A stretch of DNA of 64,000 nt. Source: an uncultured bacterium. GTDB lineage: Bacteria > Chloroflexota > Dormibacteria > Aeolococcales > Aeolococcaceae. Numbering within the stretch: position 1 is the stretch's first letter; each line of letters begins with the position of its first letter. Both the position numbers and the translations under genes were made by a program. The notes under the pieces were generated by a model that saw nothing but the letters and a program-made list of their open reading frames with translations, ran no database searches and had not been told where the DNA came from. The DNA lies in contig CAVQTJ010000018.1 of assembly GCA_963716555.1 (NCBI GenBank), positions 392,413 to 456,412 on the forward strand, read 5' to 3'. Below, in pieces: positions 33,370 to 61,338 of this stretch.

Positions 33370-33506
33370 GCGCAAGTCCCAGGGCGCCGGAGGACATCGG
33401 GGGCGGCCCAGAGGTCGCCCCGCCCAGGACCGCGTGATGGCCCATTCACGGGCGGTGGCCCCACTGCATACGCTCGCGGTGGCCGCTTGACCTTGAGGGG
33501 ATTCGT

Positions 33507-35573
33507 TTGGACATCGGATGGGCGGGAACTCTGCTGCTCGCCACGACCGGCGCGATCGTGGGGGCAGCTTCGCTCTACCTTCTGGGACTTGCGCTTGCGG
33601 CCCTGCGCCCACCGCGGGCCGCCCCCCTGGGTGGCGGCCACAGCCGCCTCGCCGTCATCGTGCCCGCCCACAACGAGGCCGAGCTGCTGCCCCGCTGCCT
33701 GGCTTCGCTGCGCGCCCAGGACTATCCCCCAGATCGTTTCGAGGTCCTCGTCGTCGCCGACAACTGCACCGACAGCACCGCCGCCGTGGCTCGGGACGGG
33801 GGTGCGCGGGTTCTGGTTCGCGACCAGCCGGACCTGCGCGGCAAGGGCCGGGCGCTGCGCTGGGCCATGGACAGCCTGCTGAGCTCGGCGAACCCGCCCG
33901 ATGCGGTGGTGGTCGTCGACGCCGACTCGGTGGCGGACACCGCCTTGCTCCGGTCCCTGGAGGGCGCCATGCTCGCCGGAGCCGAGGCCGTGCAGGCCGA
34001 GTACCTCGCCCTGGGCGAGGCGTCGTCGGGCGCCACGCTGCGCCAGGCGTCGTTTCTGCTCTTCCACCGCACGCGATTTGCCGGAAGGGCGGCGCTGGGA
34101 ATGGCCTGCAGCCTGGTCGGCAACGGAATGCTCTTCACCCGATCGCTGCTCGAGAGGATGCCGTGGAACGCATTCACGGGCGCGGAGGACCTGGAGTATT
34201 CGACCGAGCTCCGCCTTCGCGGGGTCCGGCCGGTCTTCACCTCCGCGGCGGGGGTGGCGGCTCCGGCCGCCGGGTTCGGGAGGGGGGCCGCGACTCAGCG
34301 GATGCGCTGGGAGGGAGGCCGGTTCCACGTCGCCCGGACCCGACTTCCCGACCTGATGACCTCAGCCGTCCGCCGCCGCGACTGGTCGCTCCTGGACGCC
34401 GCGGCCGACCTGGCGGTGCCCCCCCTCGGGCTGCTGGTCATGCTCGCCCTCCTGGGCGGCGCGGCCGGCCTCGCCCTTTGGGTCGCCGGGCTCACCCCGC
34501 TGTGGGTGGGGATCATCTGGTGGGCGGCGCTGCTGGCGATTGCCGGACACGTCCTCATCGGCCTGCGCGCGGCAAGAGCGCCGGCCTCGGCCTATCGGGC
34601 GCTGCTGCAGACGCCACGCTTCCTGGTCGTCAAGCTCGGCACCTACCTGCGGATGTCGCGGGGCCTGCGGGCCGACCGATGGGAGCGCACCGAACGCCCA
34701 TCGGAGGCGGGCCACGGCGTCGACCGACCGAACCCGCCGACCGGCGCGCAGCGGCTCAACGTCTGCGGGGTGCCCATCGACCCGGTTGACCGGGCCCAGG
34801 CGGTGGACCGCATCCTGGCCTCCGTGGGATCGGGGAGCGTTCTCCAGGTGTGCACCGTCAACCTCCAATTCCTGGTCACGGCCCGGAGGCGGCCGGAGGT
34901 TCGGCGAGCTCTCGGCGATGCCGGTCTCAACCTGGCCGACGGCGCGCCGGTCACCTGGCTGGCCCGGCTGCTCGGGCGACCCCTGCCCGGCCGCGTGGCC
35001 GGCGCCGACCTGGTCCCGGCGCTGGCGGCTCGATCGGCCCAGACGGGGGCCCGACTCTTCCTGCTGGGTGGCAGGGATGGCGCCGCTGTCGATGCCGCGG
35101 CGGCACTGCGCCGGGAGCACCCCGACCTCATCGTATGCGGCATTCATGAACCGCCCTTCGCATCGGTCGCGGAGATGGACGACGCGGCCCTCCTCAGCCG
35201 TGTGGAGGAAGCGGCTGCCGACATCCTGCTGGTCGGTTTTGGACATCCCAAGCAGGATCTCTGGATCGCGGCGCACCGGGACATGCTTCCGGTCTCGGTG
35301 GCGATCGGGGTGGGAGGCACCTTCGACCTTCTGGCGGGGCGTCTGCGCCGCGCTCCCCGGTGGGCACGGAGGAGTGGGCTCGAGTGGTGCTTCCGACTGG
35401 CGCAGGAGCCGCGCCGGCTGGCGCTCCGCTACGCAGCCTGCGCGACCTGGCTGATCGGCGTGCTCGTGCCCATGGCAGCGTGGCAGCGAATTGCCGGCGC
35501 CAACGTCACCACGGCGGCCACGGGCTCCGAGGTGGTGGCGGTCGAAGCCCAGGGCGGGAGCGTGTACCCGTGA
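33507..35573 (+). CDS. Two-domain glycosyltransferase: an N-terminal GT2 (PgaC/N-acetylglucosaminyltransferase-like, multi-TM) fused to a C-terminal WecB/TagA/CpsF (GT26) domain.
   Basis: The GT2 part reads 'LAVIVPAHNEAELLPRCLASLRAQDYPPDRFEVLVVADNCTDSTAAVA', 'VVVDADS' and 'QRMRWEGG' (a QxxRW-like motif), followed by TM helices. The GT26 part reads 'LNVCGVPIDPVD', 'LQVCTVNLQFLV', 'LADGAPVTWLARLLG' and 'LLVGFGHPKQDLWIAAH'. Confidence 0.75.
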   Translation: MDIGWAGTLLLATTGAIVGAASLYLLGLALAALRPPRAAPLGGGHSRLAVIVPAHNEAELLPRCLASLRAQDYPPDRFEVLVVADNCTDSTAAVARDGGARVLVRDQPDLRGKGRALRWAMDSLLSSANPPDAVVVVDADSVADTALLRSLEGAMLAGAEAVQAEYLALGEASSGATLRQASFLLFHRTRFAGRAALGMACSLVGNGMLFTRSLLERMPWNAFTGAEDLEYSTELRLRGVRPVFTSAAGVAAPAAGFGRGAATQRMRWEGGRFHVARTRLPDLMTSAVRRRDWSLLDAAADLAVPPLGLLVMLALLGGAAGLALWVAGLTPLWVGIIWWAALLAIAGHVLIGLRAARAPASAYRALLQTPRFLVVKLGTYLRMSRGLRADRWERTERPSEAGHGVDRPNPPTGAQRLNVCGVPIDPVDRAQAVDRILASVGSGSVLQVCTVNLQFLVTARRRPEVRRALGDAGLNLADGAPVTWLARLLGRPLPGRVAGADLVPALAARSAQTGARLFLLGGRDGAAVDAAAALRREHPDLIVCGIHEPPFASVAEMDDAALLSRVEEAAADILLVGFGHPKQDLWIAAHRDMLPVSVAIGVGGTFDLLAGRLRRAPRWARRSGLEWCFRLAQEPRRLALRYAACATWLIGVLVPMAAWQRIAGANVTTAATGSEVVAVEAQGGSVYP

Positions 35574-36778
35574 GCGGCGCCGTGGGATCGGCGGAGCTGC
35601 CCGCACGAGCTTCCCGCCGCCTCGACGGCGTGGACGGCCTGCGCGCCCTGGCAGCCCTCTGGGTCGTGCTGTTCCACATCCGGGCCTTCAGCGGAGCGCG
35701 TCTCGGACCGCTGGACATCCTCGTCCGCAGCGGCTCCACCGGAGTCAGCCTGTTCCTGGTCCTGAGCGGTTTCTGCCTCTACATTCCGGTCGCCCGTGCA
35801 GGGACCCAGAGCTTCGGGGTGGGCCGCTTCCTGCGCCGCCGCGCCACCCGCCTCCTCCCGGCCTATTACGTCTCCCTGATCATCATCCTGGCGGTGACCG
35901 TGGTGGCCGCCGGCCCCCTGGGCCTCGCTCCCCTGAGCGGCACCCAGATCGCGATCCAGGCCGCGACCCACCTGACCATGACCCACTCGCTATTTCCCAG
36001 CACCTTCTATGCCCTGAACGGGGCCTATTGGTCGCTGGGGCTCGAATGGCAGCTCTACCTGGCCCTGCCGATTCTCGTCTTCGGTGTGCGCAGGTTCGGT
36101 TTTGCCCGTACCATCGCGGCGGCAGTCATGGTCAACGTCGCATACCGCCTCGGCCTGCAGTTCGCCTTCGACCTCCATGCCGTCTCCCCCACCTCGCCCC
36201 TCGGCCAGGACGTGCTGCCCAACCTGCTCCCCGGCCGCTGGGCGGAGTTCGCGTTCGGCATGGTCGCCGCTCAGCTGTATGCGTCCCGGCGGATCGCGCT
36301 GTGGGCTCACCGATCCGGCTGGGCGGTGCTCGGGCTCATCCCCCTGACCGGGCTGTCGCTGATCTCGGTCGGAAGCCCCCTCGAGCACCTGCTGTTCGGA
36401 GCTGACTTCTTTCTGCTTCTCTGCATCGTCCTGGCACGTGAGAACTGGGTGTCGCGGATCGTGTCCTGGCGTCCGCTGGCCGCGGTGGGGGTGATGTCGT
36501 ACAGCCTCTATCTGGTCCACCAGCCGATTGTCGCCTCGCTCTCCGCCATCTTTCTGCGGCTCGGCGGATCGCCGCGACTGGTGTTCCTGGAGGTGCTCCT
36601 GCTCCTGCCCGCGATCATCGGCGTTGCCTGGCTGCTCTTCGTCACGGTGGAGCGCCGCACCCTCCGCGCCTCCGGCTCGGCGGAGCCGGGAAGTCCTGAG
36701 GCCCTGCTGCTCACGCCGCTGAATCTCCTCAAGCGTCGTCGCGGCGTGGTGACCCCCACCGTCGTCGACGCCGCATGA
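35570..36778 (+). CDS. Acyltransferase family 3 (OatA-like membrane O-acyltransferase). A GTG start overlaps the upstream stop (GTGA).
   Basis: 'LDGVDGLRALAALWVVLFHI', 'STGVSLFLVLSGF' and 'ATRLLPAYY' are conserved AT3 motifs. It has about 10 TM helices. Confidence 0.8.
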   Translation: MSGAVGSAELPARASRRLDGVDGLRALAALWVVLFHIRAFSGARLGPLDILVRSGSTGVSLFLVLSGFCLYIPVARAGTQSFGVGRFLRRRATRLLPAYYVSLIIILAVTVVAAGPLGLAPLSGTQIAIQAATHLTMTHSLFPSTFYALNGAYWSLGLEWQLYLALPILVFGVRRFGFARTIAAAVMVNVAYRLGLQFAFDLHAVSPTSPLGQDVLPNLLPGRWAEFAFGMVAAQLYASRRIALWAHRSGWAVLGLIPLTGLSLISVGSPLEHLLFGADFFLLLCIVLARENWVSRIVSWRPLAAVGVMSYSLYLVHQPIVASLSAIFLRLGGSPRLVFLEVLLLLPAIIGVAWLLFVTVERRTLRASGSAEPGSPEALLLTPLNLLKRRRGVVTPTVVDAA

Positions 36779-37101
36779 GCGGGCCGAACCGGAGGGGGAC
36801 GCCGCGCTACGTGGTGCGGATGACCCTGGCTGGGGGGTCCAGCACGGATCTCACCTCCGACCTGCCCTGGCGCGAGGCTCGGGGGGCCCTGACCATGGTG
36901 CGCCGCATCTTCGGCCATCCCGACGCGCGGGCCGAGGGCTGGATCGCCTCTTCGATGCACCACGGCTTCGGGGCCTCGAAGGGCGATGTCTCGGTCAGCT
37001 TCACCGTCGAGGACGTCGGTCCCATCGATCTGGTGGGTCGTGCCGGCGCGGAACGCCGCCGGGGGTCAGAGCGATTGTCGATCGAGCAGCGCAGCGGCTG
37101 A
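36775..37101 (+). CDS. Hypothetical small protein, possibly translationally coupled to the acyltransferase by an ATGA overlap.
   Basis: 108-aa ORF of moderate complexity. Uncertain. Confidence 0.3.
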   Translation: MSGPNRRGTPRYVVRMTLAGGSSTDLTSDLPWREARGALTMVRRIFGHPDARAEGWIASSMHHGFGASKGDVSVSFTVEDVGPIDLVGRAGAERRRGSERLSIEQRSG

Positions 37102-37866
37102 TCAGGCGGCGGACGATGCCGGTGCGGCTGCGCGACTGCTGCGCACCGCGGCGCCGAAACGCGCATCACACCGCGGACACTCGGTCAGGTGGCCCTCGAG
37201 AGCGCGGAGCCGGTCCTTGCGCAGCGATGCCAGGCGCAGGTTCTCGAACACGAAGACCGCCTCCCGGCATTCCGCGGGCAGCGATGCCCCCGCCTCGACG
37301 TTGACGTACGCCGTCCTGAAACTCTCTCGGGCGCGGTGGAGGAGGCCCTGAACCGAGCCGCAGGTGATGCCCAGAGCGGCCGCTGCCTCGGCCTCGGAGT
37401 GTCCCATCACGTCGCGCAGGATCAGAACATCACGCTGTCGATCGGGCACCGAGAGGATGGCGGCGCGGACCAATCGGCGGGTCACGTTCAGCTCCAGCGC
37501 CTCTTCGGGGCGGGCGCTGCGATCCTCGTCGATGGCGGTGCTCATCGCCAGCTCCGACGCGGCGGCACCGAGATGGGCCTGCGCCCGCCGGGTCCGGCGG
37601 CGCAGCTCATCGATACAGAGGTTGGCCGCCACCCGGTGGGTCCAAGCACCGATGTCGCTGTCCCCAGGCATCCCGGAGATCTTCTCGAACGTCTGGCAGA
37701 AGGTGTCTTGGAGGACGTCCTCGACGGTCTCCCAGTCGTGCAGGTAGTTCCAGCACATTCCGCGAAGCCGGTCGCTCAGCATCAGCAGATCGAGGACCCC
37801 TCGATCGCCGGTTGGAAGCGGCCGCCGGGAGGCAGCATCCTCCGCGCTATGCGAGTACTCGATCAC
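37102..37866 (-). CDS. ECF-type sigma-70 factor with a C-terminal zf-HC2 (anti-sigma-like) extension.
   Basis: Region 2 is 'DVLQDTFCQTFEKI'. The region 4 HTH is 'RQRDVLILRDVMGHSEAEAAAALGITCGSVQGLLHRARESFR'. About 60 further aa follow, containing 'ECREAVFVFENLRLASLRKDRLRALEGHLTECPRCDARF', which is the HLxxCxxC pattern of an anti-sigma N-domain. Confidence 0.75.
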   Translation of the reverse strand: MIEYSHSAEDAASRRPLPTGDRGVLDLLMLSDRLRGMCWNYLHDWETVEDVLQDTFCQTFEKISGMPGDSDIGAWTHRVAANLCIDELRRRTRRAQAHLGAAASELAMSTAIDEDRSARPEEALELNVTRRLVRAAILSVPDRQRDVLILRDVMGHSEAEAAAALGITCGSVQGLLHRARESFRTAYVNVEAGASLPAECREAVFVFENLRLASLRKDRLRALEGHLTECPRCDARFGAAVRSSRAAAPASSAA

Positions 37867-38117
37867 GAGCTTTCCCCCACGAGCCAGCCCCCTGAAGTCT
37901 CTTCCTCTGCAGGGCAGAGTACGTCATCCGGGTGGGTGTTGTCATCAGGGAAGACCGTGACGTCACCGGTCAGGCTGGGCAGCCCTCCCAATCAGACCGG
38001 GACAGTCCCGATCCGATCTTTTCCGTTCGCGGGGGGTCCCATTGGACATGCGCGACTGCCTCCGTGACAACCCGCGAGTCCCCCATGTGAACAGCCCTGC
38101 TCAGAGATGACGAAGAA

Positions 38118-40858
38118 TCATGGTTTACCGTGACTCTCGACCGCATCCTCCGCCGTCAGGGCCGCCGCCAGCTCCATCCGGGATCGCACACTCAGCTTGG
38201 TGAACACTCTCTGGAGGTGGGTCTCGACCGTGTTGACCGTCACCGAGAGCGACGCGGCGATCTGCCGGTTGGTGCGGCCCCGAGATGCGAGCTCGGCAAC
38301 CCGGCGCTCTCGCGGGGTCAGCTCCATCCCTGAGGTGACCCGGCGCGAGCGCGCTCCCCCCGCCGCCGCGAGCTCGTCGCGGAGCTGTCCAACGAGAAGA
38401 TCGGCTCCGGCGTGCTCGGCTCGGCGCAGGCCCTGGGCCAGCGGGCTTCGGGACTCCACCCGGCGCCCGGTGCGGCGCAGCAACCGGCCCAGCTGGAGCA
38501 GGCCCGCGATCCGGTCCACCTCCAGCCCGCCCGCGTCCGCGGCGCGGATCGCGGCGCGAAGGCCCGCCTCCGCGGCGGGCAGGTCGCCCTCCAGCTCGGC
38601 GAGGATCGCCCGCCCCTGGGCGGCTGCCATTCGCGGCCAGCTGCAGGGCAGGCGGGCGGCGGCCGCTTCCAGCCTCTCGGTGAGCCGGGTGGCGGCGGTC
38701 ACATCGGAGGAGCCGGCATGAGCCTCGATGGCCCGCAGACCCCAGGGGACGACGCACGGCTCCTCCATGCCGAGGCGTTCGGCGATGCGCTCCACCTCTC
38801 GGTAGCCGGTGGCCGCCCTCTGCGGGTCGCCCACAGCCAGGTACCGCTGCGCTCTCACATGGGAGACCCAGAGGGCGGCCAGCGGTTCCTCACCGATCCG
38901 CGTCGCCACCAGCGCGGCTTGGCAGGCTTCCTCGCTCTCCTCGAGTCGACCCTGCTGGAAAAGGATCGCGGCCCGGAGCGCGGCGGCTCGGGCCCGGATC
39001 CCCGGCGCCGCCTCGGCGGACCGCTCAGCCGCCGTGACCAGCGAGGCCGCGTCGTCGAGGCGGCCCAGGCGGAGCCTGGCGTCGGCCCGGGTGACCATGA
39101 GCTGAGCCGCGGCGAGGGGGGCGCCCTCGTGGCGGGCGATGGTCGCCATCACCTGCAGGAAACTGTCCGCGTCTGCCGATTGCCCCGCGTAGATCGCCAC
39201 CGCTCCGAAGAGCTCCGCACTCCCCAGCGGCATGGCCAGCGCGTCGGGGCGCCGCCGTGGATCCTCGAGGCCGCGCCAGGCGGGATCGTTGTGGGCCGCC
39301 GGGCCGGGGGCGTTGCCGGCGACGCTCGCAAGGTAGGCTGCGACCGCCGCCACCCGGGCCCGGCTGGTCTGATCCGGGCATCGTGCCTCGGCCTCGGTCA
39401 GGGCGCGCTGGGTGGCGGGTACGCCGCTCTGCTGCCACAGCATCAGGGCGTGACCGACGAGGCCCTGCACCGCCAGCTCGGGGGCCGAAGAGCCGGCCAC
39501 CTCAGCGGCGCGCAGGTAGTGGCTCGCGGCGCTGGTTCGCCTCCCCGAAGCGCAGCAGGCGTCGGCGAGGGTCAGAAGGACGCGCGCCCGCGCCGCGTCG
39601 TCGGGGATCTCACCGTAGCGCTGGAGCCTCTGGAGCACGCTGCCGGCAGCCACCGGCCGGCCCGACAGCAGCAGTGTCTGGCCGAGCGAGAGGCGAAGAT
39701 CGAAGCTCGCCGAGGCGCCGGCCAGCTCGACCGCTGCTCGGAAGTGCCGCGCCGCAGCGACGGTGGACCCGTCCTCGAGGGCCTTGGCCGCCGCCCGGCG
39801 GACGATGTCGACGGCCCCATCGACCTCGAACAGATCGGCGCTCAGGGCGTGGTCGGCCGCCCGGGATTCGAGCCCGCGACGAGCCAGCGCTGCGAACGCC
39901 CGAGCATGGAAGCGCCGGCGCATCGGCAGCGAGAGGTCGGCGTACAGCGCCTCGCGCAGCAGCGGCTGCGCGAAGTCGAGTGATAGGTCGGACGACTCTC
40001 GAAGGACACCGGCCTGGCAGAGGGTGTCCAGCGCGCTGTCACCCGGCGCTCCATCCATCCGCGCGATCTCGGTGACGAGGTCGGAAGCGAATGGCGCCTC
40101 GAGGACCGTGGCCGCCTGTGCGCATTGCACCGAATCGGGATCGAGCCCGGCCAGAAAAGACCTGACCGTGGTTGGTGAGAGGCGGATGGCCGCCTCTGCG
40201 CCGGCGCCGTTGCTCAACCCGCTCAACGCGCGGACCGCATCGGAAAGGACCAGTGGATTGCCGCCGCAGCTGCGCCAGACCGTCTCGACGGTCGCGTCGC
40301 TCAGCTCGCGGGCGCGTTCCCGGAGGACCCCCGCCGCCTCGGTCAACGTGAGCGGTTCGAGGTCCACGGCGGTGGCCATCCGGTCTCGGCTCAGCTCGGC
40401 GCTGAGGTTGGCCGCACCGGCCGGCCAGGGGCGGAGGGTGGCCATCAATCCCACCCCCATGGATTCGGTGCGCCGGAAGAGGTAGCTGAGCACGGCGAGC
40501 AACTCCAGGTCTGCCCACTGGAGGTCGTCAACTCCGACCAGGGTCGGGCCCGACCAGCGCTGCTCCAACCGGCGGGCCAGCCGCTGAGCGGCGGCGACCC
40601 CTCCGGCTCCGTCACCGTCGGGGCCGGAGCCTGAGGAGCCGAGCAGCTGACGGGCGAGGGCCAACGGCCATTCCTGTTCCAGGGCCGCGGCTCGGACGAT
40701 CACCACCTCGAGCCCGGCACGACGCGCAGCCTCGGCGGTCTCGCTCAGAAGGCTGGTCTTGCCCAGCCCCGCACGGCCGACGATGAAGAGGCCACCACCT
40801 CGCCCGGCGCGCACCCCCGCCACCAGCGCAGACGCCGCCGCCACAGCCTCAGCCATGT
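38118..40858 (-). CDS. LAL/MalT-type large ATP-binding LuxR-family regulator. The probable start is M at 'MAEAVAAAS'; the ORF track extends it to 41054.
   Basis: N-terminal P-loop 'GLFIVGRAGLGKTSLL', a long TPR-like helical middle, and the C-terminal LuxR HTH 'LTPRERRVAELASRGRTNRQIAASLSVTVNTVETHLQRVFTKLSV'. Confidence 0.8.
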
Positions 40859-40916
40859 CCCAGATACCGTCCCCCGCGGCGCATCTACTCTCGCCCGCCA
40901 TTCTCGCATAGCAGGC

Positions 40917-40951
40917 GCTTTTCCACACCCTGGAAGGGCTTTTCCACACCC
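40917..40951. promoter_or_regulatory. Two 14-bp direct repeats GCTTTTCCACACCC with a 21-bp period, in the divergent region between the LAL regulator and the EPS operon.
   Basis: Seen directly: GCTTTTCCACACCC tggaagg GCTTTTCCACACCC. Confidence 0.45.
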
Positions 40952-41088
40952 CGAGTGGGAGGGGTGAGGCTCGTGGGCCGGCCGGCTCCCGGTCGGGCGC
41001 GCCCTCGCCCGATGGGGGAGGACATTCGCCCAGGTTGTAACGGAAACTTCCCATCGCGTCACGAAACGGTGGCAGTCACCATGGAGAG

Positions 41089-42594
41089 GTGATCACTGAG
41101 GGTGAGGTCTCCCTGCTGGGAGTGCCGGTCACGCAGCATCGGCTGCGGCTCAGCGCCGTACCGGCGCTGGCTGCCGGCAACCCGGTGACCAGGATCTCCT
41201 CGCGACAGTGGCGGTCGGCGCTGATGACCGCAGATCTCGGCGCCGGCCTGGGGGCGGCGCTCGCCGCCGTCGTCGGCCGCTTCGGGGTCGACGAGCCGCT
41301 CGGCCCCAGCGGGCCGTACGTGGCACTGATCATCGCGGGCCCCCTGGCATGGGTCTGCCTCTTGATCATGAGCGGCGTCTACGACGAGCGCCGCATCGGC
41401 ACCGGTGGCGCCGAGTTCGGCCGGATCGCCAACGCCGCGCTGTACATGGTGGCGGCGATCGTCGCAGCCTCCTATGTCACCCGCAGCGACATGTCCCGAA
41501 CCGTCACCGCCGTCACCGTGGTCGCGATGGGCGCTCTCACCCTGGCCGTGCACCTCACCGGGCGATTGTTGCTGCGCCGGCGCATCCGGGGTGGGGGGGC
41601 CATCCACCGCGCCGTGGTGGTCGGGCCGGCTCCGGAGGTGCGCGACTTCGTCGACCACCTTGAACGGGTCTCCCATTCCGGGCTCAAGGTGGTCGGCATC
41701 TGCCTTGCGGAAGCCGAGCGGGCGGGCTCCGACGAGCCGGCGGCGACCTCCGCAAGCACCGTCGATGACATCATCCAGGCCGCGCGGCGTGCCGGAGCAG
41801 ACACCATCGCGGTCACCGGGTCGGGGGTTCTCAGTGGCGCCGAGTTGCGCCGCCTCTCCTGGGATCTCGAGGGTACCGGTCTGCGCCTCCTGGTCGCCCC
41901 TGGGGCCACCGAGCTGGCCGGGCCGCGCCTCCTGGTGCACCTGGTCGGGGGCCTGCCCCTGCTCCGCGTCAAGGAGGCTGACTTCTCGGGTCCGAGCTGG
42001 CTGCTCAAGTCGTCGCTCGACCGCTTCACCGCCCTCTTGCTCTGCACCGTGCTGAGCCCGCTGCTGGTCGGGATCGCCGTGGCCATCCGGCTGACCAGCC
42101 CGGGTCCGATCCTCTTCCGGCAGTCCCGCGTGGGCCTCCACGGCAGGGATTTCTCGATGCTCAAGTTCCGGACCATGCGCGACGGGGCTGAGGCCGACGC
42201 CGAGAACCTGCGCGAGCTCAACGAGCACGACGGCGTGCTGTTCAAGATCCGCGAGGACCCACGGGTCACCGGGGTGGGGCGATTCCTTCGTCGCTACTCC
42301 CTCGACGAGCTGCCCCAGCTGTTCAACGTCATCGGGGGCTCGATGTCGCTGATCGGACCACGCCCCCCGCTGCGCTCCGAGGTGGAGCGCTACCCACTCG
42401 ACCTCCGGCGCCGCCGGCTTCTGGTGAAGCCGGGGATGACCGGGCTGTGGCAGGTGAGCGGGCGTGCCGACCTCTCCTGGGAGGAGACCGTCCGCCTCGA
42501 CCTGCAGTACGTCGAGAACTGGTCGGTGCTTCTCGATGCGGTGGTGCTCTGGAAGACGTTCCGAGCGGTGGTCACCGGCCGCGGCGCGTACTGA
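41089..42594 (+). CDS. Polyprenyl-phosphate hexose-1-phosphate transferase (WbaP/WcaJ-type priming sugar transferase, PF02397).
   Basis: N-terminal TM helices and a CoA-binding-like domain, then the catalytic 'GPRPPL', 'SMLKFRTM', 'KPGMTGLWQVSGR' and 'DLQYVENWSVLLD'. Confidence 0.85.
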   Translation: MITEGEVSLLGVPVTQHRLRLSAVPALAAGNPVTRISSRQWRSALMTADLGAGLGAALAAVVGRFGVDEPLGPSGPYVALIIAGPLAWVCLLIMSGVYDERRIGTGGAEFGRIANAALYMVAAIVAASYVTRSDMSRTVTAVTVVAMGALTLAVHLTGRLLLRRRIRGGGAIHRAVVVGPAPEVRDFVDHLERVSHSGLKVVGICLAEAERAGSDEPAATSASTVDDIIQAARRAGADTIAVTGSGVLSGAELRRLSWDLEGTGLRLLVAPGATELAGPRLLVHLVGGLPLLRVKEADFSGPSWLLKSSLDRFTALLLCTVLSPLLVGIAVAIRLTSPGPILFRQSRVGLHGRDFSMLKFRTMRDGAEADAENLRELNEHDGVLFKIREDPRVTGVGRFLRRYSLDELPQLFNVIGGSMSLIGPRPPLRSEVERYPLDLRRRRLLVKPGMTGLWQVSGRADLSWEETVRLDLQYVENWSVLLDAVVLWKTFRAVVTGRGAY

Positions 42595-46219: not shown

Positions 46220-47203
46220 TCAGGCACCGGGAGCAGGGGCAATTGGCGCATGCTGACGACGGCGCCCACTGTGACCCAGGTGCGGCCTCCGTCTGGTCTC
46301 ACGATCTCGAACTCGGCGCCCGATCAACAGCCGGGCAAGGCTCTCTTGCACCGCGCTGACCTCCAGCTCGCGGTGAATGGCCCATTCCGTCCACGGGAGC
46401 ACGACCGCCTGGAAGGAGCGGAGGCCCTCGGGCAGCTGCTGCTCACCCTTGCCGTACATGACCGGGACCAGCAGGACCATCCCTGCCTCGGGCACTCCCA
46501 CGGCGGCCACCTGCTGCGCGACTGAGCGGTAGGTCCGCCCACTGACCGGCGAGTCGTCGATGACAAGAACCAGGCCCGATCCGGCCGCCGCGCGCATTCG
46601 CCGTGCCTGACGTGCCCCAAACCCGCGATCCGGGCGACAGCTGAGCTCCTCGACGTGGGTGAATCCCAGCCGCCGCAGGGCCGCCCCCACCAATGGAGCG
46701 AGGTAGCTCCCGGATGTCCTGACGCCGAGGACGATGAGTGGCCGGCTCCGCTCGCTCCAAGTCACCGCAAATGCCTCCGCCAGCGCCACGCAGTCGGCTG
46801 GCTTCTGGTCCGCGGAGCGGAAGCAGGCGGGCAGGCGCAGGATCTCGCCTCTGAGCGCGCGCGGAAGCCGGGAAACGCGCCGGACGAGCGACTTCACCGC
46901 CTCCGCGAACCGGGCGCCGTCGGCGAAGGCATCTCCGTCCACGACGGCGTCGGCGGCAAGGCTGACGACCCTCTCGGCCTCTGCCTGCCAGGCGGCGAGG
47001 CGACGATCACCGATGCCCATGGCGCGGAGCCGGAGTCCGCCTCGCCGGCCCCATTCCACAGTCGAGGCGAGCATCGGCGATCTCCGCCGCACGAGCGCGA
47101 TGACCTTTCGCGTCCCGGCGAGGTCCCGCTGGAGGTGGTCTTCGGCGACCTGATTCAAACCGGCGAGACGGAGAAAGGCATTCGCCCAGTCCTCTTGCCG
47201 CAC
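46220..47203 (-). CDS. Phosphoribosyltransferase-domain (PRT type I) protein.
   Basis: 'LVLVIDDSPVSGRTYRSV' is the PRPP-binding loop, and 'LIVLGVRTSGSYLAPLVGAAL' precedes it. 327 aa. Confidence 0.55.
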   Translation of the reverse strand: MRQEDWANAFLRLAGLNQVAEDHLQRDLAGTRKVIALVRRRSPMLASTVEWGRRGGLRLRAMGIGDRRLAAWQAEAERVVSLAADAVVDGDAFADGARFAEAVKSLVRRVSRLPRALRGEILRLPACFRSADQKPADCVALAEAFAVTWSERSRPLIVLGVRTSGSYLAPLVGAALRRLGFTHVEELSCRPDRGFGARQARRMRAAAGSGLVLVIDDSPVSGRTYRSVAQQVAAVGVPEAGMVLLVPVMYGKGEQQLPEGLRSFQAVVLPWTEWAIHRELEVSAVQESLARLLIGRRVRDRETRRRPHLGHSGRRRQHAPIAPAPGA

Positions 47204-50998: not shown

Positions 50999-51135
50999 GG
51001 GTTATGACCTTAACCAGCTCTTTTGGTTATGACAAGGGTCGCTTCAGCCGAGTGGCGGACGGCTGTCTCACTGGACCGGGACATTCGCCCAGCGCGGTGA
51101 CCGGCCGTCCAGTGAGCGCTCGCATGCGGGCCAGC

Positions 51136-55554: not shown

Positions 55555-55797
55555 CGCGCCGGGAGAATCACCTGGTGATGGGACGGGATGGGGGCGACGA
55601 CCTGGGGGTTGTTGGAATGTCCCTGGGCGAATGTCCCAAGGCGATCGAGATCACACTCTTCGCCATGGGGGCTCCGGCGCCGAGACAGGCGCCCACCGCG
55701 GGCTGCGGCATCCCATGGATCGCCTGGCCGGATTGCGCCTAACCTCGTAGGTGGCATGGAGAGTTGAGCGGACCGGGCGACGCGCGCGAGCATCATC

Positions 55798-61113: not shown

Positions 61114-61338
61114 CCCGGCAGGCTACCGCCAGCCCAGGGCAGGGGCGAATGGGCGTGTGGTCGCGCGTAGATTGTGCGTCCCATCCTCATCGGGACAGCG
61201 TCCCGACTCCTCACAACGCCATCCGGGACCACGGGGCCACCCCGGGACATGCGCCCAGTCGAGGAGGGACAGCACCCACAGCTGCCGATGATCTTCCCAT
61301 TCCCTCCACGGGTCCTAGGTCCGAGACTGGAAAACGTC

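Follow-up and report, generated by a model that had tools for sequence, protein, structure and literature searches.

Stand-alone zinc anti-sigma (ZAS) factors such as RsiW, RslA, ChrR, and RsrA carry their module at the N-terminus of a separate protein. In the ASD, helices 1–3 form the bundle that binds sigma4, and helix 4, which makes most of the contacts with sigma2, prevents binding to core RNA polymerase and the beta-prime clamp helices; the zinc site of RsiW is structural, not sensory (PMC7406223). A ZAS zinc finger fused to the sigma factor itself was described in ECF48, ECF52, and ECF53 (e.g., SCO4117), which have no separate anti-sigma gene (PMC8999054, PMC5826349). Cys-rich tails are known from CorE, OrbS, and ECF287/288 (PMC8999054, PMC7826278, PMC9023288), and OrbS is the experimental precedent for a Cys-rich C-terminal region acting as an on-board anti-sigma (PMC9023288). 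The extensions of ECF42 and CorE are needed for activity and are not inhibitory (PMC8999054). Sigma-AntA, an orphan ECF situated in a gene cluster, is degraded by ClpXP through a C-terminal Ala-Ala found in 67 of 71 orthologues (PMC7142297), and its gene is reported to be under a LuxR-family regulator (PMC5143413). A fused sigma/anti-sigma protein is thus not new in kind, and because fused regulatory tails, those of ZAS type included, are already catalogued, the protein described here is an incremental addition for the ECF field.

The window (the whole 64,000-nt stretch of DNA that was analyzed) contains a sigma-factor gene whose GTG start is preceded, 8–13 nt 5′, by a GGGGGA ribosome-binding site (Table 1). 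Both PF04542 and PF08281 scored over their cut-offs, placing the product among the ECF (group 4) sigma-70 factors, and NCBIfam TIGR02937 (sigma70-ECF) matched at 83.4 bits (cut-off 42.9); NCBIfam assigned the protein at superfamily level only. ECF sigma factors were the best Foldseek matches of the full-length model, and sigma4 structures were matched at TM 0.8, normalized to the target. Database entry P0001 was 100% identical across 89% of the window protein and is annotated as 226 aa with a later start, and P0121, with 254 aa, belonged to the same 90%-cluster and is labelled Candidatus Dormiibacterota. The window protein is a member of a small ECF family and, judging by P0121, probably comes from Candidatus Dormiibacterota; it is almost certainly a real ECF sigma factor with a ZAS-derived tail. 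The sequence-only reading had described sigma regions 2 and 4 followed by a C-terminal extension; the Pfam domains and the 69-aa tail confirmed this, and the peptide that it quoted was present at aa 199–237.

Table 1. Features of the sigma-factor gene and its surroundings, in window positions
Feature	Position	Strand	Basis or remark
GT2-WecG/TagA fusion	33507-35573	+	Pfam
Acyl_transf_3 (ends at 36778); glycan genes of this side	33507..36778	+	Pfam
Conserved small ORF (108 aa) that converges on the sigma gene and directly adjoins its stop codon	36775..37101	+	homologues
Whole ORF, ECF sigma factor with fused ZAS-like tail	37102..37866	-	GTG start, TGA stop, 254 aa
C-terminal tip APASSAA, candidate ClpXP-type degron	37105..37125	-	mean pLDDT of last residues 57
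ZAS-like three-helix module, aa 198-247	37126..37275	-	invariant ligands, AF2 helices, profile homology
Ligand codon C233	37168-37170	-	
Ligand codon C230	37177-37179	-	
Ligand codon H226	37189-37191	-	
Ligand codon C200	37267-37269	-	
Helical connector, aa 182-197, prolonging the last sigma4 helix	37276..37323	-	AF2 and conservation
Sigma4 domain, aa 131-181, -35-binding helix-turn-helix	37324..37476	-	Pfam PF08281 (Sigma70_r4_2), E 1.4e-13
Sigma2 domain, aa 32-94	37585..37773	-	Pfam PF04542 (Sigma70_r2), E 5.6e-11
C84	37615-37617	-	in Sigma2 domain
C38	37753-37755	-	in Sigma2 domain
Putative housekeeping-type sigma-gene promoter (ATGACA, 18-nt spacer, TACTCT)	37916..37945	-	by eye, aligned upstream regions
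Proximal copy of the inverted repeat, GTCACGGTCTTCCCTGAT, directly adjacent to the sigma-promoter -35 box	37944..37961	-	pattern search
Distal copy of the inverted repeat, GTCACGGTAAACCATGAT, which overlaps the LAL stop codon	38117..38134	-	pattern search
LAL-type regulator (AAA_16 ATPase, TPR, GerE/LuxR HTH), directly upstream of the sigma gene	38118..41054	-	Pfam
Priming sugar transferase (CoA_binding_3 and Bac_transf), divergent from the LAL/sigma pair	41089..42594	+	Pfam

The tail (aa 186–254) carries the pattern C200-x25-H226-x3-C230-x2-C233. All four ligands were invariant in 38 sequences of 30–62% identity and in 71 sequences reaching down to 21%, a conservation far beyond chance. The fusion was kept in 37 of 37 homologues (30–62% identity), and the connector was itself conserved, with F183 invariant and Y187 nearly so in the 38-sequence alignment. 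The homologues were all free of an intervening stop codon, as was the DNA of loci L001, L081, L084, L086, L089, and L090. The comparison with orthologues that had been suggested as a check for a lost stop between the sigma and zinc-finger parts therefore upheld the claim of a real fusion. GC content at codon positions 1/2/3 was 0.77/0.62/0.81 in the tail and 0.71/0.48/0.83 in the core. Neither the window nor five syntenic loci had a separate anti-sigma gene flanking the sigma gene, in agreement with what had been read from the sequence. A scan of genome collections yielded tail-less ECFs for the most part, together with a single clear relative of the short-tail kind (L001, 37% identity); the close short-tail family is rare among species representatives.

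In profile searches of the PDB, the top matches of the tail were RsiW (E 4.8e-4), RslA (4e-3), and ChrR (0.07). When the tail was compared by hhalign with a family of ECFs bearing a complete fused ZAS domain, the probability was 93.9% (E 1.6e-7) and the ligands were in register; that complete family matched RsiW across all four helices (2.4e-8) and also RsrA (0.02). A search of 1.84 billion proteins with the tail gave 1231 matches; among the 150 listed, most lay near an N-terminus, and zf-HC2 was present in all seven Pfam-scanned matches outside ECF fusions. Taken alone, the window tail scored 14.2–14.4 bits against PF13490 (zf-HC2; E 0.04–0.05), under the gathering score of 22.2, and 20 of 27 family tails matched the model at E ≤ 1 (best 7e-5). 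The profile matches, the hhalign result, and the zf-HC2 matches bear out the earlier proposal of homology to the sigma-binding N-domain of zinc-dependent anti-sigma factors.

The AF2 model showed helices at 198–209, 217–229, and 231–247 (pLDDT 90–96; pTM 0.57–0.62). Ligands lie at the starts of helices 1 and 3 and at the end of helix 2, where they are expected in ZAS domains. A single helix, 169–194, spanned the end of sigma4 and ran into the connector. The H-x3-C-x2-C motif with a fourth C/H ligand approximately 23–26 residues upstream was present, as in RsiW, RslA, ChrR, and RsrA (spacing x25 in the window, x26 in RsiW), and helices 1–3 with their ligand positions also match those proteins. 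The four-helix form was absent: 21 residues follow the CxxC, and the three modelled helices are followed by a low-confidence tip. Unlike the stand-alone anti-sigmas, the window module is C-terminal within the sigma factor itself, without helix 4, a sensor, or a transmembrane part; in place of the acidic DGE of helix 1, the in-register alignment shows a basic LASLRK. Among the top 50 Foldseek matches listed, for either the full-length or the sigma4-plus-tail model, there were sigma and sigma4 chains only and no anti-sigma chains. By its profile homology and predicted helices, the tail is a conserved, shortened class I ZAS (zf-HC2) module that retains helices 1–3 and the four ligands without helix 4.

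Among the fused systems, ECF48, ECF52, and ECF53 share with the window protein an ECF core followed by a ZAS-type zinc finger in one polypeptide. Their extensions reach approximately 400 aa, carry one or two membrane-spanning helices as well as extracytoplasmic domains, and are presumed to be freed by proteolysis, whereas the window tail is soluble, has 69 aa, ends 21 aa past the CxxC, and showed no transmembrane or hydrophobic span in its end DARFGAAVRSSRAAAPASSAA. ECFs of approximately 275 aa in which the fused ZAS domain is complete and soluble (P0045, P0048, P0049, and others) have the same architecture, a Cys equivalent to C84, and in-register ligands, but they are only 21–28% identical to the window protein and possess helices 3–4, RsrA-like extra cysteines, and a flexible Pro-rich linker, with no Ala-Ala end. 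CorE and CorE2 (ECF44/ECF238) and OrbS are, like the window protein, orphan ECFs with a short Cys-bearing C-terminal on-board regulator (PMC8999054, PMC9023288), but their motifs differ and are not ZAS-derived, and metal has opposite effects, activation in CorE and inhibition in OrbS. A CxC in the sigma2–sigma4 linker is a further requirement of CorE, whereas the window protein has no Cys in aa 95–130 and scored 57 bits with the SigZ model TIGR02959 (cut-off 168.65), outside ECF44/ECF238. No SnoaL_2 (ECF41/56) or TPR (ECF42) extension matched the window protein in Pfam at E ≤ 1. The ECF287 "Cys-rich C-terminal extension," compared by description only, was a loose fit (PMC7826278, PMC8999054); ECF287 is reported to be 100% actinobacterial, whereas the named relatives of the window protein are MAGs of Dormiibacterota, Binatia, or Chloroflexota. 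With sigma-AntA (ECF282) the window protein shares an orphan, cluster-situated gene, a C-terminal Ala-Ala, and a regulator upstream in the cascade (LuxR-family there, LAL here), which is a resemblance in regulation logic; the cited sigma-AntA reports describe no C-terminal domain extension, and sigma-AntA lacks a zinc motif.

The genes around the sigma factor were conserved as well. The GT2-WecG fusion and the Acyl_transf_3 gene adjoined its orthologues in L081, L084, and L086, the GT2-WecG fusion was also near the orthologue in L090, and the Bac_transf gene kept its position in all four loci. Two points of the sequence-only reading were overturned here: the sigma gene lies inside a single glycan cluster, not at the border of two loci, with syntenic genes on both sides in relatives, and the small flanking ORF, which had been called unrelated, is a conserved cluster member with homologues of 42–49% identity in L081, L090, and L084. 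This 108-aa ORF had no Pfam or NCBIfam match. As an obligate hidden anti-sigma it was rejected, being located elsewhere in the cluster in L084 and undetected in L086. No second sigma gene was present in the conserved cluster.

LAL orthologues of 906–912 aa occupied the same position in L084 and L090; the true start of the window LAL gene is probably approximately 66 codons later. Candidate promoters corresponding to the putative sigma-gene promoter were read by eye in L081 (ACGACA-N17-TAACCT) and L084 (ACGACA-N18-TAGGCT), and a generic promoter and terminator consensus scan returned nothing at 36700–38300, nor did Rfam match within the window. The inverted-repeat pattern was matched twice in the window (0.03 expected). 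Across 174 kb (window plus seven loci), all matches with ≤1 mismatch lay upstream of sigma orthologues, and a site in L084 (7768) had the same position as the distal copy. Near the cluster operons, the conserved blocks GGGACATTCGCCCA and CCCATYCCGTC are candidate ECF promoter motifs, though either may belong to the LAL regulator or another factor, and additional conserved motifs lay upstream of candidate −35 regions. A simple ECF-type −35/−10 pair was tried and rejected, as the 22–23 nt from CCCATYC to a TACGCT-like box do not fit one.

Two further features accompanied the tail. C84 was Cys in 55 of 55 tail-bearing ECFs and in 5 of 43 tail-less homologues; each of the 26 short-tail members of alignment A6 had Cys at C38, which was also invariant across the 38 aligned sequences. 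In the glycan-cluster clade, the last residue was Ala in 26 of 26 members and the penultimate one in 22 of 26, against an Ala background of 22% in the rest of the variable tail, and the 19–36 residues ahead of this end varied in length and sequence. An AA ending occurred in 0 of 27 full-ZAS ECFs and 2 of 43 tail-less ECFs. More distant short-tail members had no Ala-Ala end and kept the zinc ligands, which indicates a function of the zinc site independent of the degron.

We tentatively interpret the tail as a cis-inhibitory module relieved through zinc or redox state, a reading that falls somewhat short of an even chance. The tail would bind one Zn(II) and fold as a small helical bundle rigidly joined to the end of sigma4. 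In its reduced, zinc-loaded form it would mask or constrain sigma4 in cis, as a partial on-board anti-sigma; thiol oxidation or zinc loss would unfold it, and the freed sigma factor would transcribe the flanking glycan operons. The sigma gene would itself be read from a housekeeping-type promoter and activated through the 7-4-7 inverted repeat; the neighboring LAL regulator would be the likeliest activator. Turnover might proceed through the exposed C-terminal Ala-Ala, as ClpXP acts on sigma-AntA, in which case the unfoldase would have to pull apart the folded zinc module first.

Cis-inhibition is favored by the conserved fusion and ligands, the ZAS profile matches with their in-register ligands, the three predicted helices, the lack of an anti-sigma gene nearby, the co-occurrence of C84 with the tail, and the OrbS precedent; in addition, the helices retained are those that bind sigma4 in the ASD. 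The conserved Ala-Ala, with its precedent in sigma-AntA, and an inverted repeat specific to sigma promoters support the wider scheme. Against cis-inhibition stand the loss of helix 4 and the replacement of DGE, which pairs with sigma4 arginines, by LASLRK. Because the core-binding block through sigma2 would have required helix 4, self-inhibition by the tail is plausible and no more. With a short, conserved, helical connector in place of a flexible linker, the bundle may point away from sigma4 and not fold back on it. The pTM values, the Foldseek lists, the structural role of zinc in RsiW, the sub-threshold zf-HC2 score of the window tail, and the requirement of the ECF42 and CorE extensions for activity also weigh against it.

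Several of the same observations fit a module with a positive or structural role, which would stabilize sigma4, aid core binding, or read DNA upstream of the −35 box through the basic helix 1–2 loop RLASLRKDRLR. We consider this somewhat unlikely. The rigid, conserved connector, the exchange of the acidic sigma4-contact motif for a basic stretch, the missing helix 4, and the extra motifs upstream of the candidate −35 regions would all suit such a role, for which there are precedents in ECF42 and CorE-type extensions (PMC8999054) and, as reported, in the SnoaL_2 domain of SigJ (PMC5766207). The domain nevertheless has an inhibitory ancestor, and where relatives carry a complete four-helix ZAS domain, on a flexible Pro-rich linker, they resemble true single-chain sigma/anti-sigma pairs. 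We know of no DNA-binding function of zf-HC2 domains, which further disfavors this role.

An unlikely alternative is control of abundance, as in sigma-AntA: LAL would switch transcription on, ClpXP would remove the protein through Ala-Ala, and the zinc module would tune half-life and not activity. The terminal alanines, retained despite variable preceding residues and rare in both control sets, the low pLDDT of the last residues, the LAL gene, and the inverted repeat at the sigma promoter are consistent with it, as is the sigma-AntA cascade with its LuxR-family driver. On the other side, zinc ligands persist in the distant members that lack Ala-Ala, Ala-rich C-termini are likelier by chance at 70% GC, and the ClpXP step is a prediction for this organism.

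A combined version, which we regard as improbable, is a one-chain redox or zinc switch in which the ZAS remnant, C38 and C84, and Ala-Ala act together: oxidation or zinc loss would shuffle thiols between tail and sigma2, altering both core binding and the access of ClpXP to the degron. To our knowledge, a sigma2–tail thiol relay is undescribed for any ECF. Action of the tail in trans, by sequestering another sigma factor or a second copy (dimeric cross-inhibition), is very unlikely; the short rigid connector may hinder a fold-back in cis, but the conserved cluster offers no second sigma gene as a target. The idea that a lost stop, a frameshift, or mis-assembly joined a sigma and an anti-sigma gene has next to no chance and was rejected, its sole weak point of support being the shorter N-terminal start of P0001, against the same continuous ORF in 37 independent homologues from many samples, stop-free DNA in seven loci, coding periodicity alike in tail and core, and a conserved sigma4–tail connector.

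If cis-inhibition by the tail is correct, then the protein would be approximately the smallest known "one-component" sigma, with sensor, inhibitor, and degradation signal in 69 residues, and it would illustrate how a separate anti-sigma can become part of its sigma factor and be trimmed afterwards. A compact redox- or zinc-gated sigma factor would also be a useful orthogonal part for synthetic biology. Candidatus Dormiibacterota is a soil phylum known mainly from metagenome-assembled genomes, and the proposed cascade from LAL regulator to ECF to glycan operons, with defined candidate cis-elements, provides a handle on gene regulation in it. Should the thiol-relay switch hold, one small module would govern activity and half-life alike in a sigma factor that commits a Dormibacterota cell to building a surface glycan.

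The sigma gene was a single ORF (GTG start, TGA stop, 254 aa) that contained the peptide cited in the sequence-only reading. The Pfam domains were Sigma70_r2 (aa 32-94) and Sigma70_r4_2 (aa 131-181), and the NCBIfam ECF superfamily model TIGR02937 scored 83.4 bits (cut-off 42.9), with no equivalog-level NCBIfam model at or above its own cut-off. Beyond sigma4 there were 69 residues carrying C200-x25-H226-x3-C230-x2-C233. GC content at codon positions 1, 2 and 3 was similar in the tail (0.77/0.62/0.81) and in the core (0.71/0.48/0.83), and the tail is therefore coding; GC content of the window was 70%. A ribosome-binding site (GGGGGA) lay 8-13 nt 5′ of the GTG. A cluster mate at ≥90% identity, P0121 (MGA8015141.1, 254 aa), had an annotation that named a Candidatus Dormiibacterota MAG as its source.

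The sigma-tail fusion is real. Among the 209 relatives retrieved from 5.8 billion proteins, the tail was present in all 37 closest (30-62% identity; annotated length 216-376 aa, mostly 249-311 aa), and none ended early. C38, C84, C200, H226, C230 and C233 were invariant in these 37, and C84 and the four tail ligands were still invariant in 71 sequences that included distant fused ECFs (≥21% identity). A stop codon between the two parts in orthologues, which according to the sequence-only reading would indicate an artefact, was absent from the gene calls and the DNA of seven loci.

A separate, larger family of ECFs of approximately 275 aa (P0045, P0048, P0049 and others; the full-ZAS family) had a complete RsrA/RsiW-like four-helix zinc anti-sigma (ZAS) domain, fused through a Pro-rich linker, and extra conserved cysteines; they appear to be genuine sigma/anti-sigma pairs in a single chain. 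In another protein, P0205 (199 aa), sigma2 apparently ran straight into the ZAS-like tail, with no sigma4 between them; either a deletion or an assembly error could account for this.

Family-level profiles were consistent with the anti-sigma-like zf-HC2 identity first proposed for the tail, although the window tail alone was below the Pfam zf-HC2 threshold (14.2-14.4 bits vs. 22.2). A zf-HC2 match at E ≤ 1 was obtained for 20 of 27 family tails, with 7e-5 as the lowest value. In the PDB, the ZAS entries ranked highest by the tail profile were RsiW (E = 4.8e-4), RslA (4e-3) and ChrR (0.07), and the profile aligned to the full-ZAS family tails with the ligands in register (hhalign probability 93.9%, E = 1.6e-7). 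The profile of the latter family matched RsrA at 0.02 and RsiW at 2.4e-8, in the case of RsiW along the complete four-helix domain. Among 1.84 billion representative proteins, 1231 matched the tail profile at E ≤ 1e-3: its own family ranked first, followed by other ECF fusions, and the remaining matches listed were mostly near the N-terminus (often residues 2-50) of proteins of 100-460 aa. All seven Pfam-scanned matches other than ECF fusions had zf-HC2, some in several copies, and such matches read mostly as stand-alone anti-sigma factors. The AlphaFold2 model of the tail had helices at 198-209, 217-229 and 231-247 (pLDDT 90-96), in which C200 opened helix 1, H226 closed helix 2 and C230/C233 lay at the turn into helix 3; the best 50 Foldseek matches of the AlphaFold2 models were sigma chains only. 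The sequence comparisons thus identify the tail as a remnant of a ZAS domain.

Class I domains bind sigma4 through a bundle of helices 1-3; their helix 4, set off by a flexible linker, attaches to sigma2 regions 2.1-2.2 and obstructs the contact surface for the beta-prime clamp helices (PMC7406223). The window protein lacks helix 4, since only 21 residues followed its CxxC (19-36 of variable sequence in relatives). The in-register alignment showed LASLRK in place of L-[DE]-G-[DE], a helix 1 motif whose acidic residue pairs with sigma4 arginines, whereas the sigma4 arginines were kept (R151 and R180, invariant in the 37 closest relatives and the window protein). The sigma4-tail connector was short and conserved (F183 invariant, Y187 nearly invariant) and was modelled as prolonging the last sigma4 helix, in contrast to the Pro-rich, apparently flexible linker of the full-ZAS family. 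The pTM was 0.57 (full-length model) and 0.62 (sigma4-plus-tail model). On these grounds the tail may inhibit its own sigma factor by masking sigma4, as its ancestry reasonably suggests, and a structural or positive role of the tail is a serious rival.

Position 84 was Cys in 55/55 ECFs with any fused HxxxCxxC tail vs. 5/43 tail-less homologues, in which it was mostly Ala. Position 38 followed a similar pattern inside the short-tail family, where C38 was invariant; in the full-ZAS family the cysteine was placed one helical turn later. This co-occurrence with fused tails suggests that the sigma2 thiols and the tail may be functionally linked. In the 26-member clade linked to glycan clusters, the last residue was Ala in 26/26, the penultimate residue was Ala in 22/26 and position -3 was Ala or Val in 20/26, whereas the preceding variable stretch was only 22% Ala and differed in sequence and length across close relatives. 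C-terminal Ala-Ala occurred in 0/27 full-ZAS ECFs and 2/43 tail-less ECFs. The last residues of the window protein had low pLDDT. This end resembles the ssrA ClpXP degron and the conserved C-terminal Ala-Ala of sigma-AntA, an orphan, cluster-situated ECF, which makes sigma-AntA a direct ClpXP substrate (PMC7142297).

The sigma gene lay within a single conserved glycan cluster and not, as previously proposed, at the boundary of two loci. One flank held a GT2-WecG/TagA fusion, an Acyl_transf_3 protein and the 108-aa ORF; the other held the LuxR-type LAL regulator (AAA_16, TPR, GerE), a divergent priming sugar transferase (Bac_transf) and GT9. Largely the same set, together with a GH5 cellulase and a GDSL lipase, surrounded orthologues at 47-67% identity; the context of P0030, a more distant short-tail member, was unrelated. 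The 108-aa ORF had no match in Pfam or NCBIfam. It had been called unrelated; homologues (42-49% identity) were nevertheless found in the clusters of three other loci (L081, L090 and L084), so it is a cluster member, and its displacement within the cluster in L084 shows that it is not an obligate neighbor of the sigma gene. The listed LAL ORF (978 aa) was longer than its orthologues (906-912 aa) and left 35 bp to the Bac_transf gene, for which reasons its true start is probably approximately 66 codons further downstream. The Acyl_transf_3 start is probably also later than listed, given an overlap of approximately 210 nt with the end of the GT2-WecG ORF and a Pfam domain that begins at aa 89.

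Features of the sigma gene and its surroundings (window positions unless a locus with a sigma homologue, L081-L090, is named)
Feature	Position	Strand	Remarks
Sigma gene	37102-37866	-	
Last two codons, GCC GCC (Ala-Ala)	37105-37110	-	
C84 codon	37615-37617	-	sigma2, ANLCIDELRRR
C38 codon	37753-37755	-	sigma2
108-aa ORF	36775-37101	+	ATG overlaps acyltransferase TGA; abuts sigma stop codon
LAL ORF, as listed	38118-41054	-	directly upstream of sigma gene
Acyl_transf_3/GT2-WecG overlap	35360-35573		35360, listed Acyl_transf_3 start
GTCACGG-N4-CCnTGAY inverted repeat	37944-37961; 38117-38134	-	5′ of sigma gene; L081 7852; L084 7768, 7921; L090 7852
GGGACATTCGCCCA motif	41019; 51078; 55637; 61244		glycan-gene promoter regions
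GGGACA(A/T)TCGCCCA (14 nt)	41019-41032; 51078-51091; 55624-55637; 61244-61257	+; +; -; +	orthologous position: L081 7554; L086 7767; L089 7833; L090 4964
CCCATYC(C/G)GTC-like motif	~33439; 41050; 46379; 55590; 61300		glycan-gene promoter regions
ATGGCCCATTC motif	33437-33447; 46377-46387	+	L081 11338; L084 12402; L086 12195

The inverted repeat upstream of the sigma gene matched twice vs. 0.03 expected, an optimistic estimate as the pattern was taken from the same sequences. In 174 kb (window plus seven loci), all matches with at most one mismatch were upstream of sigma orthologues; the L090 copy was a perfect 7-4-7 palindrome. The proximal repeat abutted a housekeeping-like ATGACA-N18-TACTCT, with equivalents in L081 and L084, which points to a dimeric helix-turn-helix protein as a likely activator. 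The repeat is a candidate operator, and the activator would most simply be the adjacent LAL. Other conserved motifs recurred in glycan-gene promoter regions, both in the window and in orthologous loci. The 14-nt motif was in those of Bac_transf, a GT4 operon and a GT2 divergent region, often with a CCCATCG block 16-18 nt downstream. The GT2-WecG gene was preceded at approximately 60-70 nt by ATGGCCCATTC, a motif conserved in four loci; a CATACGCT-like box came 19 nt after it, and approximately 40 nt further upstream there was an inverted repeat, GTCCC-N11-12-GGGAC. No Rfam family reached its gathering score in the whole window (1-64000).

As the most likely mechanism we tentatively propose that the tail would constrain sigma4 in cis, dependent on zinc or redox state, that LAL would drive transcription of the sigma gene and that turnover of the protein would depend on the C-terminal Ala-Ala. 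The main rival, that the tail is needed for sigma activity, is only somewhat less probable.

The observation of the sequence-only reading was confirmed and its interpretation partly supported: the domain identity stood, an inhibitory function may hold, and novelty was overstated. Fused ZAS-type zinc fingers are known in ECF48/52/53 (PMC8999054, PMC5826349), CorE/CorE2 and OrbS sense metal on board through short Cys-rich tails (PMC8999054, PMC9023288), and ECF287 and ECF288 are listed with Cys-rich extensions of unknown motif (PMC7826278). The defining features of ECF41, ECF42 and ECF44/238 were absent from the window protein, as were those of ECF48/52/53, whose fusions have transmembrane segments and long extensions. 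The protein is a novel variation on a known design, most aptly seen as a soluble ECF whose ZAS remnant is minimal and lacks helix 4 and whose C-terminus is a sigma-AntA-like Ala-Ala, in a phylum poorly represented in published ECF classifications.
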